From a bacterium (lineage in GTDB: Bacteria > UBA8248 > JACPRG01 > G963555815): a stretch of DNA of 64,000 bases. The DNA is taken from NCBI GenBank assembly GCA_965218795.1, contig OZ244653.1, forward strand, positions 3,968,001 to 4,032,000. Direction: 5' to 3'. The translations under genes were made by a program, and so were the position numbers. Under the pieces are notes generated by a model, which was given only the letters and a program-made list of their open reading frames with translations, made no database searches and had not been told where the DNA came from. Of the stretch, positions 19,227-45,065 are shown one piece after another (position 1 is the first letter of the stretch; each line of letters starts with the position of its first letter).

Positions 19227-19766
19227 ATGGCCTACATACGACTGATCGATCACGAAAATGCGACGGGGGAGCTGAAGGAATTCTACGACTGGCTGGCGCC
19301 CATCGCGGGCGGCATCCCGAACATCGTCAAGCTGTCGAGTCTCAAACTGCCCGCAATGAAATCCTCCCAGGACCTCTATCAGTCTGTCCTCTATCACGAA
19401 TCCGGATTGACGATGACCCAAAAGGAAATGGTCTCGACGGTCGTGTCGGAGATCAACGGATGCGGTTACTGAGTAGGCCACCACGGAGGGTCGCTCCGTA
19501 AGCTGACCGAAGACGATGCGCTTGCCGATTCGATCATCCGGGACTACCGAAAAGCGGATGTCGACGGCCGTACGATGCGGATACTGGAGTTCTCGGAGAA
19601 GCTGACCAGGAACCCTGGACAAATGGGTGAGGCCGACGTTGCGGGGCTTCGCAACGAAGGGATGACCGACGAGGAAATCCTCGATCTGGTCCAGCTCATC
19701 GCCTACTTCAACTATATAAACCGCGTCGCGACCGCCTTGGGCGTAGACCCGGAAGAGGGGCACTGA
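19227..19766 (+). CDS. AhpD/CMD-family peroxidase-related selenoprotein (CGYU, UGA at 19470-19472)
   Basis: ORFs 19227-19472 and 19575-19766 are in one frame separated only by the TGA; VVSEINGCGY-U-VGHH; C-terminal IAYFNYINRVATALG. Confidence 0.88.
19483..19499 (+). promoter_or_regulatory. Candidate bacterial SECIS
   Basis: ACGGAG-GGTCG-CTCCGT; first loop G is the 17th nt after UGA. Confidence 0.65.
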
Positions 19767-19946
19767 AACAGGGCGGAATTCATCGAACAATCCGAATCAA
19801 GCGGGAAATCGGGATTTTTCGAACCCTTCGGTGCCCCCGGAGGCCGGTCGCCGAAAGGGTTGGCGCGTCGAGCGGCTGAAATCGCGGAGGTTGAATTAGA
19901 GCAGGGGGGTTCAACGAGCCGGATGAATCGGAAAACGAAGCTCCTT

Positions 19947-20151
19947 GCAGGCGCGGCTTACGTTGTCCAGCTCCTTGGCGAGCTCCAGCAGCGACAGCTT
20001 GCGTCGTGCGACCTTGTTCTTCGTGGTCATGTCCTGTCTCCTGGTCAGGGTGGGGGTGAAGGGTGATAACTCCATCCTACACACTCCCCAGGGGCGGCAT
20101 GACCACGCTGCACAACGTGGCCAACTGTCAGGTGATTACCGTCTCAGAACA
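19947..20151 (-). mobile_element. IS481-family left end plus transposase stub
   Basis: End TGTTCTGAGACGGTAATCACCTGACA; MTTKNKVARRKLSLLELAKELDNVSRAC. Confidence 0.8.
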
Positions 20152-20230
20152 ACAAGGGCAGAGAAGAAAGTCATCAAGCAGCGACTCAGCGCCCTGCAGC
20201 TGGCCGAGGCCCTGGACAACGTATCGGGGG
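20152..20230 (+). mobile_element. Second IS481 transposase N-terminal relic
   Basis: KKVIKQRLSALQLAEALDNVS. Confidence 0.6.
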
Positions 20231-20554
20231 GGGGCGACCGGTAGCCCCGTGGCATTGCGTTGTTCCCTGCGCTTCTTATAATGACGTTCGGGAGCCGCGC
20301 GAGGGACCGGGAACCGTTTCCACACGAGCGCGGCGGGCTTCGACCGGACGATGCTCCTAATCAGAGACGATCAAGCGCTGCCCGTTAAGAGAATCATGCA
20401 ACGGGCATTCCACCATTCATTTCGTGACATTAGGCGGTCCCGATAAGATTCGCTATAATTGGGGGAACAGGAAACCCGAATTTTCAGTTGAGAGTCGTCC
20501 CGGTCCGCTGATCGGGAGACGAGGGGGATTCCCTTAACGCCGGTTGAAATCTCT

Positions 20555-21364
20555 ATGACCCAGGAAGCGCCCACATCAAACCCATCTGCCACGTCCGATG
20601 TTCCTTGCATCAATCTCAAGGACGTTGAGATGGTGTATCGAAGTCGGGGCAAGCCCGATTTCCTGGCGGTCAAAGACATCACCTTCGATATCCAGGAGCG
20701 GGAGCTTTTCGCCCTCGTCGGCCCCACGGGTTGCGGGAAGTCGACGATCCTGCTGTGCGTCAGCGGACTGCTGTTCCCTACGGCCGGAAATGTGGAAATC
20801 CGCGGCGGTTCGGTGGGAGAAGCCAAGTCGGCCAACCAGTTCGGCTTCATCTTCCAGGACCCGGTCCTCCTGCCCTGGCGAACGGCCATCGACAATGTCC
20901 GCCTGCCGCTGGAAGTCACGGGAACCTATGACGGAGAACAAGTGAACCGGTGCCTCGATCTCCTGGACTTCGTCGGCCTGAAGAAATTTCAGGATCTCTA
21001 TCCTCACGAGTTGTCCGGGGGGATGCGCCAACGGGTGTCCATCGTCCGGGCCCTGGCCCATGATCCCTCGATTCTGTTGCTGGACGAGCCCTTCTCCGCC
21101 CTCGACGAGATCACCAAACGCCGCCTCCACGTCGAATTCCTCGACCTTTGGGCCCACGAGCAAAAGACCGGCGTCCTGATCACCCACGACCTGTACGAGG
21201 CGGTGTTCATGTGCGACCGCGTGGCCGTCATGTCCCCCAATCCGGGGATCATCAAAGAGATCATCGAGGTCACCCTACCGCGGCCGCGGACCAAAGAGAT
21301 GCGCGACTCCGACGAATTCCACGAGCTGACGCGCTACGTCCGCGATGTTTTGGGGGAGTTTTGA
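20555..21364 (+). CDS. NitT/TauT ABC transporter ATP-binding protein
   Basis: GPTGCGKST, LSGGMRQR, LLLDEPF. Confidence 0.95.
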   Translation: MTQEAPTSNPSATSDVPCINLKDVEMVYRSRGKPDFLAVKDITFDIQERELFALVGPTGCGKSTILLCVSGLLFPTAGNVEIRGGSVGEAKSANQFGFIFQDPVLLPWRTAIDNVRLPLEVTGTYDGEQVNRCLDLLDFVGLKKFQDLYPHELSGGMRQRVSIVRALAHDPSILLLDEPFSALDEITKRRLHVEFLDLWAHEQKTGVLITHDLYEAVFMCDRVAVMSPNPGIIKEIIEVTLPRPRTKEMRDSDEFHELTRYVRDVLGEF

Positions 21365-42779: not shown

Positions 42780-43937
42780 CTATTGTTTTGCCGGGGTGAA
42801 GATCTCGACGGAACGAAGGACCTCCTGATCGTCCGTCCCTCCAACGACGAGCACCCTTCCGTCATTCAAGAGGGTCGCCGTGAACAGCCGCCGGGCCCGG
42901 CGAAGTCTCGCGGGGGATAGAGAAAAGCGGCCCGTCCGGGGATCGAAGATCTCCGCGCTGCGAAGCGTTTCGTCCAGCCCGCGGCCCCCGACCAGGAGGA
43001 CCGATCCGTCCGCAAGACGGACAGCGGCGTGTTGCTGTCTGGGGTGGACGAGAGGTCCGGCGGTGGGTTCGAAGGATTCCGTTCTCGGGTCAAACACCTC
43101 GGACGTTCCAAGGACCTTGTCGTTCCAGCCACCGGCGATGAGGACGCGCCCGTCGGGCAGGAGCGTGGCGGTGTGCCGCCTGCGGCGATCCCGGACCGGG
43201 GCGCCGGGCGGACGGAAGACACCCTTTTCGGGGTCGTAGATCTCCGCCTGCCGGGCCTCGGGATTCCCCCCGACAATGAGAACCCGCCCGTCTTGTAAGC
43301 GTGTCGCTGTGTGCTGCTCCCGGGCAAACAGCATCCTTCGCCCGGGCGCAAACCGATCTTCCTTCGGGAGGTAACGTTCCGTGAAGGGAACCCTTCCACG
43401 TCCATCATTGCCTCCGGTGATGAGGACGGTGCCGTCGGACAGGGATGTCGCGGTATGGTCAAACCGCGGGGTAGACAGCTCCCCGCGTGTCGGATGGAGT
43501 GTGTTCTTCTTCTGAAGATAAAGCGCGCCGTTGGACAATGACGTGGTGGCGTTCAGCCAACCGCCCGTGTATAGGGCCCGGCCATCGGGCAGCAGGGCCG
43601 CCGCTCCCCAGCCCGACGTCTTGGGAAGGCGCGCCGAAACCAGCCCGAACGCTTCCTTGGAAGGCGCGAAGCGTTCGACGGACGCCAATGGCCGGCTCTT
43701 CGTCAGACCCCCGAAGATGAGGACAGACCCATCCTTCAGCCTGAGCGCCGCGTGTCCGTGCCGCTCGATATGCAGACGGTCTGTCTTTGAAAACCCGCCA
43801 TCCTGGCCGCAGGCTGCCAGAGAAATGCAGAAGACCGGCAGGAGCAGGAAGACCCGCCGCCGGGAAATCAATGAGAATATGCGATTTCTCTCCCCCAAGC
43901 GGCTTTGTTCGTCTTCGGAATGGATCGGTTTACACAT
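42780..43937 (-). CDS. Kelch-repeat probable lipoprotein
   Basis: Seven HTATxLxDGRVLxxGG-type repeats; lipobox LAAC; start uncertain. Confidence 0.88.
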   Translation of the reverse strand: MCKPIHSEDEQSRLGERNRIFSLISRRRVFLLLPVFCISLAACGQDGGFSKTDRLHIERHGHAALRLKDGSVLIFGGLTKSRPLASVERFAPSKEAFGLVSARLPKTSGWGAAALLPDGRALYTGGWLNATTSLSNGALYLQKKNTLHPTRGELSTPRFDHTATSLSDGTVLITGGNDGRGRVPFTERYLPKEDRFAPGRRMLFAREQHTATRLQDGRVLIVGGNPEARQAEIYDPEKGVFRPPGAPVRDRRRRHTATLLPDGRVLIAGGWNDKVLGTSEVFDPRTESFEPTAGPLVHPRQQHAAVRLADGSVLLVGGRGLDETLRSAEIFDPRTGRFSLSPARLRRARRLFTATLLNDGRVLVVGGTDDQEVLRSVEIFTPAKQ

Positions 43938-44134
43938 ACCAGAGCCTGATCTCCATCGGATGAATGATTCTCCTGGATATTCCGTCCTTGAGGGGCGAAA
44001 ATAACATATGTATGAGGTGGCGTCCCGTCATAAGACTGTTCCCGAAGAAAATCCGGTTTGGATTGATCGCTAATCGCACTCTTAGTGCCGGGGCAGGTTT
44101 TCCCGCAAGGCGATTGAAGACGGGAGCCTCGTGC

Positions 44135-44262
44135 CCCAATGCCTCGAGCGGGAGTGGCGGTTGCTGTCCTGGGAGATGGGATCTACGTCATCGGAGGCTT
44201 GGCGCGGCACGGGTTGGACGCCGCCGCTTGGAAGAGTCGAATCTATGTGATCAGCGGCGGGC
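44135..44262 (+). pseudogene. Kelch-repeat remnant
   Basis: PMPRAGVAVAVLGDGIYVIGG...RIYVISG. Confidence 0.5.
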
Positions 44263-44459
44263 CGAAACCGGGCGGATCCTAACAGCGGCGCGAATGAATC
44301 CTTCTCACCCACGAAGGGGTCTAATCCGTGAATTCCGTCCGCCGACCGGGACGAGGGAATTATTCGAGTAGCGGGCCGTTGAAGAGATTATAAACTTCGA
44401 CGGTGATATCGGTCCTGAGCCGGTCGGTACCCTGCTTGAATCTTGATGGAGATGATATT

Positions 44460-45065
44460 TTGAAATCCTTGATTCGCTCTATTGGGGGAAGTGTGCTCGC
44501 CTTGATGTTGGCGGCCACCCTCGGGGCTTCCAATGCCTCGGCCGATGGATCCGAGAAAAAACGGTTTTCGGACCTCCAGGTCGTCCGGTTTGCGAAGCCC
44601 GTAACCGCTCCGGATTTCAGGTTGCAGAAGGTGACGGGCGACGAAGTCTCTTTCTCACAGTTCAAGGGCAAGGTCGTTCTGGTGAACTTCTGGACCACTT
44701 GGTGACCGTTTTGCCTGCGGGAGCGGCCGGCTCTCGAAGCGCTTTACAAAAAATATGGCGGCAAGGGTCTGGAAGTCGTCGGGATCGCCATGGACCGGAA
44801 GGGTAAGTCCGCGGTCGGGCCCTTTTTGAAGAATCACCCGGCCTCGTTCACCGTATTGCTGGACCCGGATCTCCGGGTGTCCGGGATGTTTTCGGTGCGC
44901 GGCACTCCCACGAACTTCCTCTTCAACCGGAAGGGAGAGGCGATCGGAGGCGCGGTCGGTTTTCGGGATTGGTCCAGCAAAGAGGCTCACGCGCTGATCG
45001 AGGGGCTGTTGAAAGCGGATGGCCCCGTCCGATCCTTGCGGGGCGAGAAAGCAGGGCGGCAATGA
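44460..45065 (+). CDS. TlpA/ResA-like thiol-disulfide oxidoreductase selenoprotein (UPFC, UGA at 44703-44705)
   Basis: APDFRL...KGKVVLVNFWTTW-U-PFCLRERP continues in frame to VRGTPT; signal peptide; upstream of ccdA. Confidence 0.9.
44718..44736 (+). promoter_or_regulatory. Candidate bacterial SECIS
   Basis: CGGGAGC-GGCCG-GCTCTCG; first loop G is the 20th nt after UGA. Confidence 0.65.

Follow-up and report, generated by a model that had tools for sequence, protein, structure and literature searches.

The DNA examined here (the window) is a stretch of 64,000 nucleotides (nt), positions 3,968,001 to 4,032,000 of contig OZ244653.1, from a bacterium of phylum UBA8248 in the Genome Taxonomy Database (GTDB). 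It contains three genes in which an in-frame TGA occupies the position of a redox-active Cys and is followed by a short RNA hairpin with GGAG on its 5' arm and CUC on its 3' arm. These are very probably three ordinary bacterial selenoprotein genes, read by standard recoding of UGA as selenocysteine (Sec, U) through SelB and a bacterial Sec insertion sequence (bSECIS), with the shared GGAG and CUC being a signal specific to a protein family rather than to the organism. In the mechanism proposed, SelB with Sec-tRNA(Sec) would bind the apical part of the bSECIS hairpin inside the coding sequence, 16–19 nt past the UGA, and would deliver Sec to the ribosome at that codon. In two AhpD-like proteins, Sec would replace one member of a redox Cys pair (CxxU); in a periplasmic TlpA/ResA-like oxidoreductase encoded beside a CcdA-type transporter, it would replace the first (UxxC). 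The SECIS specific to the AhpD-like family would have been inherited with the gene across many phyla. The genes, Sec codons and hairpins are as follows (window positions; energies in kcal/mol; lengths in amino acids, aa, or base pairs, bp; spacing from UGA to loop).

19227..19766, + strand: AhpD-like 'peroxidase-related enzyme' gene 1, 179 aa, motif C-G-Y-U; TIGR01926 146.0 bits (cut-off 81.8), Pfam CMD
19470..19472, + strand: Sec codon 1, TGA, second position of CxxU, aligned to the invariant Cys column of 11 paralogues
19483..19499, + strand: SECIS hairpin 1, ACGGAG / loop GGUCG / CUCCGU; 6 bp, -8.4 kcal/mol, spacing 16 nt, encodes H-G-G-S-L-R
38550..39161, - strand: AhpD-like gene 2, 203 aa, motif C-R-Y-U; TIGR01926 100.4 bits (cut-off 81.8), Pfam CMD
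38898..38900, - strand: Sec codon 2, TGA, in CxxU, placed by the sequence and by paralogue alignment
38869..38889, - strand: SECIS hairpin 2, UCACGGAGA / loop GUU / UCUCUGUGA; 9 bp, -10.7 kcal/mol, spacing 17 nt, encodes S-H-G-E-F-L-C-E
44403..45065, + strand: TlpA/ResA-like thiol:disulfide oxidoreductase gene, motif W-U-P-F-C; Pfam AhpC-TSA/Redoxin across U
44703..44705, + strand: Sec codon 3, TGA, first position of UxxC, with TGA orthologues and Cys paralogues
44718..44736, + strand: SECIS hairpin 3, CGGGAGC / loop GGCCG / GCUCUCG; 7 bp, -10.6 kcal/mol, spacing 19 nt, encodes R-E-R-P-A-L-E

A preliminary description of the window had placed Sec codons at 19470 (+), 38900 (-) and 44703 (+) in proteins of two unrelated folds, and both the three in-frame TGAs and the two folds (CMD/AhpD-like and thioredoxin-like) were confirmed. 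With TGA read as U, the frames gave ...NGCGY-U-VGHHGGSLRK... for AhpD-like gene 1, ...LLKCRY-U-TISHGEFLCE... for AhpD-like gene 2 and ...VNFWTTW-U-PFCLRERPALE... for the TlpA-like gene, and the frame was open for 81 codons before and 97 after the TGA in the first, 115 and 115 in the second and 100 and 119 in the third. Domain matches ran across each U. Thus, Pfam CMD covered residues 47–93 of the gene 1 product (U at 82) and 47–98 of the gene 2 product (U at 88), while W-U-P-F-C of the third protein was spanned by AhpC-TSA (83.1 bits, residues 68–178, U at 101), Redoxin (81.7 bits) and Thioredoxin_8 (42.9 bits).

The machinery for reading these codons was evident from the source genome, which is closed in a single contig of 5,174,045 bp (60.5% G+C). 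It contains one copy of tRNA-SeC (anticodon tca, c[5045743,5045839]), selB (386.7 bits, cut-off 242.25), an adjoining selA (565.8 bits) and selD (325.4 bits), which has an in-frame TGA of its own. Since TGA is the commonest stop, ending 1152 of the 1804 open reading frames (ORFs) of at least 400 aa (64%), it has not been reassigned, and the genome combines tRNA-Sec, SelA, SelB and SelD with TGA as a stop codon elsewhere. We infer that SelB binds, and that Sec is actually inserted, at the three sites of the window.

The two AhpD-like genes of the window are paralogues (41% identity). Selenoproteins of this family were reportedly first recognised in Sargasso Sea data. When the 11 CMD/AhpD-like paralogues of the genome were aligned, the sole invariant columns were the two positions of CxxU (C79 and U82); 11 Sec-containing paralogues were counted, one of them probably broken, and a direct family search yielded two CMD genes without TGA. 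Homologues in other genomes, sought with a 4-sequence alignment as query, comprised 267 confirmed relatives, and among the best 80 of these the codon at the U position was TGA in 55 and TGC or TGT in 25. The nearest relatives of the window genes were in records of metagenome-assembled genomes (78–81% identity), with one Nitrospinota-labelled record at 66%. Each of the 51 genomes assigned to the phylum contained 2–17 matches to TIGR01926 and, among the matches listed, one or two in-frame TGAs were present in all but 7 (254 further matches exist). The family (TIGR01926, CxxU) is entered in the table of a 2026 review (PMC13188914) and in the database BSepDB (PMC13326102). Both window genes agree with these entries in their above-cut-off scores and in CxxU; the difference lies in the 11 Sec-containing paralogues within this one genome.

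For the TlpA-like gene, the first in-frame start is GTG at 44403, with TTG at 44460 the likely start, and the N-terminus of the protein resembles a signal peptide. Its scores against named NCBIfam families were all under cut-off (ResA 94.1 versus 170, TlpA 84.8 versus 230, DsbE 50.6 versus 123.15) and the protein is therefore filed as TlpA/ResA-like and not as TlpA or ResA, that is, as a family-level relative rather than a named orthologue of these equivalogs. Searching all 51 genomes of the phylum for orthologues gave 30 loci. In 12 of these (the window's own and 11 from other genomes), TGA filled the opening position of the xxC motif, 23 sites with a Cys codon (TGC or TGT) were noted in 12 further loci, which may be paralogues or orthologues, and the motif search was empty at 6. 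The gene shares a thioredoxin fold, W-U-x-x-C, a signal-like N-terminus and a neighbour of CcdA/DsbD_TM type with known UxxC selenoproteins of the thiol-disulfide isomerase-like and redoxin families. This neighbour, which starts 21 nt downstream, is likely to encode the redox partner of the TlpA-like protein:

45086..45859, + strand: CcdA/DsbD-type membrane thiol-electron transporter gene; Pfam DsbD_TM 44.1 bits

Bacterial SECIS elements, of which those of the E. coli fdh genes are the prototypes, are too short and too varied for Rfam-type models, and an Rfam scan of the window gave no SECIS-type match at gathering score. As the preliminary description had reported, the 5' arm contained GGAG and the 3' arm CUC in all three hairpins, with the first loop G 17, 18 and 20 nt past the A of the UGA. 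Because the hairpins of the two AhpD-like paralogues are homologous, the number of independent hairpins is two, not three. Near-identical copies of hairpin 2 were noted in two homologues, from records labelled Deltaproteobacteria and Binatia. [quoted passage not shown] This model was fitted by the three window hairpins and by all 42 sites of the genome-wide working set described below, which differed from it in nothing essential.

Sec sites elsewhere in the genome were sought by screening 40,841 TGAs whose frame could be extended by 12 or more codons in both directions. A codon-usage model derived from long ORFs provided a filter for coding potential, which was combined with filters for six-frame consistency and for a generic hairpin with a loop G, and evidence from paralogues was then added. 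Paralogue BLAST was noisy (repeats, antisense frames), and only matches with C or U aligned to U were used. Comparison of 65 read-through ORFs with Pfam left 37, comprising 3 from the window and 34 of 60 genome candidates, while 28 (2 from the window and 26 from the genome) were rejected. Some of the rejected ORFs were adjacent genes in the same frame, for example LipA and homoserine dehydrogenase, ThiS and ThiG, or a LON-domain protein and D-Tyr deacylase, and the other genome candidates had no domain across the TGA; in the window, the candidates at 20130 (-), with 'CPCC...U', and 7593 (+) were dropped for want of a family match. Many stretches of the genome are duplicated at 98–100% protein identity in several copies that resemble insertion sequences or other repeats, and most of the false read-through pairs in the paralogue search arose from them. 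Family searches conducted through stops added three sites, in a second TlpA-like gene (genome position 473577), a DsbA-like gene (249643) and a gene for a glutaredoxin-like 'UXX-star' protein (1264023), and a relaxed scan for redox motifs added two more, which brought the working set to 42. The screen gives a lower bound, since its coding-potential filter missed the three sites found only by family search.

By family, the working set comprised AhpD-like (11 sites), DsbA-like (7), Prx/TlpA-like (6), OsmC-like (5), GrdB (2) and short PrdB/GrdB-like (2) proteins and one site each in GrdA, deiodinase-like, ArsC-like, glutaredoxin-like, HMA, SelD, DUF3179, MBL-fold/rhodanese and muconolactone-isomerase-like proteins. 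Thirty-eight of the 42 sites were well supported and four were qualified. One of the latter (1018300) had only sub-threshold family matches together with an aligned CxxU; in the muconolactone-isomerase-like ORF, the family match does not span U. The other two look broken but have kept the hairpin: an AhpD-like copy at 1224170 (+) shows no relation to its paralogues in the C-terminal half, and in a PrdB/GrdB-like copy at 2445201 (+), with an intact paralogue (2446199) about 1 kb downstream, an in-frame TAG precedes U by 12 codons.

The origin of the shared letters was evident from the codons that contain them. In five AhpD-like genes of the genome, the 5' arm is formed by the in-frame codons CAC-GGA-G(G/A)G (H-G-G/E) and the 3' arm by CUC-(C/U)GU (L-R/C). 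Among AhpD-like homologues from other genomes, the GGAG/CUC pattern was present in 36 of the 55 TGA-bearing and in none of the 25 Cys-bearing genes, where present it encoded H-G-[E/G/A]-x-L-R, and the bearers were labelled Gemmatimonadota, Acidobacteria, Latescibacterota, Calditrichaeota, Halanaerobiaceae, Chloroflexi and others. The best hairpin had a median energy of -7.6 kcal/mol in TGA-bearing compared with -1.8 kcal/mol in Cys-bearing homologues, and hairpins of -7 kcal/mol or lower occurred in 39 of 55 and 4 of 25, respectively. Several different stem sequences were noted among the AhpD-like homologues, all of which form hairpins, and the register of the helix shifts. TGA-bearing homologues without GGAG/CUC build a hairpin with G first in the loop from other codons, such as CCGGCGC-GGUCU-GCGCCGG (H-R-R-G-L-R-R) or GGGCCGC-GUU-GCGGUCU, while the Cys forms have H-H-A-E-A-L-N and no hairpin. 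The RNA signal may shape the protein, in that Sec forms would be forced to H-H-G-[E/G/A]-[G/S]-L-R at the place where Cys forms have H-H-A-E-A-L-N.

The arms of the TlpA-like hairpin are formed by different codons, CGG-GAG (R-E) and GCU-CUC (A-L), which are conserved in orthologues of the phylum. At the 12 TlpA-like TGA sites of the phylum, the pattern was present in 7 and a helix in all 12, the non-matching variants being GAGAGC, AAGAGC/GCUCUU and GAGAGG/CCUCUC. Genome-wide, GAG accounts for 58% of Glu codons and CTC for 33% of Leu codons. We suggest that two unrelated coding hairpins share GAG and CUC because these are reverse complements of one another and common codons in this genome.

The preliminary description had proposed that GGAG/CUC is a lineage-specific SECIS consensus, which this organism's SelB would read. 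This proposal was weighed with the pattern TGA-N10-16-GGAG-N3-8-CTC, which has 7 specified bases and two flexible gaps and which occurs 16 times in the window, 3 times at Sec sites. In its favour, the pattern was present at 6 of the 42 Sec sites as opposed to 12 of 2347 ordinary TGA stops (0.51%) and 6819 of 1,465,027 in-frame codons (0.465%), an enrichment of about 30-fold (Fisher p about 3e-7 and 5e-8, respectively); frequencies after TAA stops (1/622, 0.16%), TAG stops (5/844, 0.59%) and Cys codons (71/14,512, 0.49%) were also low. Paired GAG:CUC triplets were likewise seen in 13 of the 42 Sec stems, compared with 8.8% of 3000 control coding hairpins. However, of the six Sec sites with the pattern, five were in a single subgroup of AhpD-like genes and one in the window's TlpA-like gene, so that 36 of the 42 lacked it and the rate outside the AhpD-like family was 1 of 31 (Fisher p=0.13 versus the 0.465% coding background). 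In the genome scan that the preliminary description had suggested, the pattern followed 234 of the 40,841 extendable TGAs, of which 15 had coding potential on both sides and 6 were accepted Sec sites; taken over all TGA triplets, it followed 717 of 156,878 (0.457%), and only the same 6 of these 717 were accepted Sec sites. An equal frequency after ordinary stops had been named as grounds for abandoning the idea, and this was not what was found, but the excess came from one protein family. Many other phyla, moreover, have the same motif in their AhpD-like selenoprotein genes, and 5 of the 12 TlpA-like TGA sites lack GGAG and yet keep the hairpin. The GAG:CUC triplets were confined to four families (AhpD-like 6, DsbA-like 5, TlpA-like 1, HMA 1), mostly to two paralogue groups, and were rejected as a lineage consensus on these grounds. 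A lineage-specific consensus is thus largely refuted and we consider it very unlikely.

Equally improbable, in our estimation, is that the shared letters are pure coincidence with no common cause, not even codon usage. The pattern is short, was defined after the data had been seen and has a background of 0.46–0.57% per site, and only two independent hairpins require explanation; against this, the two AhpD-like genes share their letters by descent. For the third gene, coincidence and the family-specific reading differ in degree only, as the latter also sees in it something close to coincidence, helped by the abundance of the complementary codons GAG and CUC. That the TGAs are instead real stops, pseudogene lesions or signs of a general reassignment of TGA, with irrelevant hairpins, has the least to recommend it and is close to negligible. 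In its favour, two other genes of the genome with TGA do look damaged, at 1224170 (+, disrupted C-terminal half) and 2445201 (+, in-frame TAG). In the window genes, however, TGA falls exactly on the redox Cys and is kept as TGA in divergent orthologues, both flanks have coding potential in the same frame, domains span the TGA, and the Sec machinery is complete in a genome where TGA ends 64% of long ORFs.

Several observations weigh against the preferred reading of standard bSECIS recoding with a family-specific GGAG/CUC. The minimum-energy fold of the surrounding 60-nt stretch contained hairpins 2 and 3 but not hairpin 1, and the three 60-nt folds were no stabler than those of shuffled sequences (z -0.18, -0.18 and -0.38). 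A column test of hairpin 3 over 11 distinct orthologue rows found 96.1% of cells paired and one pair changed on both sides (G-C to A-U); covariation in this hairpin was weak, with a score equalled by 88 of 500 shuffles, so that its nucleotide conservation could largely reflect conservation of the protein. Fisher and rank tests on the AhpD-like and TlpA-like homologues overstate significance because the loci are related to one another. Hairpin statistics for the working set are partly circular, since a hairpin filter (-5 kcal/mol or lower, loop G) had served in the first selection of many sites, and the following figures carry this reservation. Every one of the 42 sites had a hairpin with 4 bp or more, a loop of 3–6 nt (3 nt at 19 sites, 4 nt at 7, 5 nt at 14 and 6 nt at 2) and G among the two leading loop bases; UGA-loop spacing was 16–37 nt at all 42 and 16–21 nt at 33 (compared with 22% of control hairpins at random in-frame codons). 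Hairpins of -7 kcal/mol or lower were present at 28 of 42 Sec sites; in the controls, they followed 12.6% of random in-frame codons (n = 4000) and 10.2% of ordinary TGA stops (n = 1152). This circularity spares only the sites from family search or paralogue BLAST. The GAG:CUC counts also leave some room for a slight preference for such stems across the lineage.

At least about 42 candidate genes in 15 families bear out the suggestion of the preliminary description that the selenoproteome is unusually large. As a phenomenon this is not new, and the three window genes belong to catalogued families. The review table (PMC13188914) also includes CMD-like, thiol-disulfide isomerase-like (UxxC), redoxin, DsbA-like, deiodinase-like, OsmC-like, arsenate reductase, DUF3179 and UXX-star families. 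In the 2026 account of BSepDB, the top ten bacteria have 46–63 selenoprotein genes and three of them, with 'Nitrospinota' labels, belong to GTDB phylum UBA8248 (PMC13326102). The present genome shares with these bacteria a very large selenoproteome dominated by thiol-redox proteins, although the BSepDB counts were obtained by that database's method, whereas our own screen sets about 42 as a minimum. Sec was also carried by glycine-reductase-type GrdA and two GrdB proteins. None of 12 molybdopterin-oxidoreductase matches in the genome had an in-frame TGA, none of 4 thioredoxin matches had a TGA, and searches of the genome for NiFeSe-hydrogenase and FlpD/MvhD families gave no match. On the chromosome, Sec genes were clustered, with five consecutive triples within 25.3 kb as opposed to 0.73 expected (P=0.0014); examples are four Sec genes within 16 kb (2779676–2795775) and a grdA/grdB pair near an AhpD-like gene (749278–761229). 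The window's own triple is unremarkable when taken alone, because half (50%) of random placements yield one or more such triples.

Three members of the working set gave rise to further observations. An MBL-fold hydrolase with two rhodanese domains (472 aa, 2788860–2790278 (-), TGA at 2789705) reads P-G-H-V-G-G-S-T-U-G-R, with Sec in place of the conserved Cys of P-G-H-x-x-G-S-x-C-G. Full-length homologues (450–470 aa) have Cys at the U position: among the best 120 matches, Cys was present in all 57 that fitted the corresponding regular expression, while the other 63 did not fit it. The same in-frame TGA was present in orthologues from 5 other genomes of the phylum (66–69% identity) and absent from one more distant relative. 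No description of a Sec form of this family was found in the main text of the review (PMC13188914) or by full-text literature search. The glutaredoxin-like member of 'UXX-star selenoprotein family 1' (TGA at 1264023 (-)) has U as residue 13 and scored 93.3 bits (cut-off 72), and its C-terminus, Y-TGA-GGC-GTC-TGA, suggests from the sequence a possible second Sec three codons before the stop. In the muconolactone-isomerase-like ORF (91 codons, 2429983–2430258 (+)), the TGA at 2430049 is codon 23 and is followed by a hairpin of 11 bp and -11.7 kcal/mol; read-through is only plausible here, as the family match (27.7 bits) starts past the TGA. A possible, if somewhat doubtful, extension of these results is that the phylum is a hot-spot of Sec use, in which Sec runs through whole paralogue families (here 11 AhpD-like, 7 DsbA-like, 6 Prx/TlpA-like and 5 OsmC-like), with no Sec formate dehydrogenase and with at least one family of which no description was found.

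The three selenoprotein genes of the window do not share an operon. An amidohydrolase gene (17692–19185) lies 41 nt upstream of AhpD-like gene 1, and directly upstream of AhpD-like gene 2 is a UbiD-family gene (39245–41044 (-)), which is one of three genes for UbiD-family decarboxylases within 22 kb (the others at 28945–30345 (+) and 49230–50603 (+)). These are accompanied by genes for two luciferase-like monooxygenases, two amidohydrolases, an AMP-binding enzyme and an ABC/NMT1 transporter set. Group II intron domains were noted at 1776–2289 (+) (RF02005, 156.9 bits; RF02003, 53 bits), followed by an ORF of 432 codons (2816–4114 (+)).

The practical value of the motif is limited, as a scan for GGAG/CUC would recover just 6 of about 42 Sec sites among 717 motif-bearing TGA triplets, while annotation pipelines that treat every TGA as a stop would cut all of these Sec genes short. 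With this closed 5.17-Mb genome, the short list of bacteria with at least 40 selenoprotein genes gains a member in which selenium is used in thiol-redox proteins and glycine-type reductases and not in formate dehydrogenase or hydrogenase. More generally, a short signature common to a few SECIS hairpins can stem from the protein family and from codon choice, and not from the decoding machinery.

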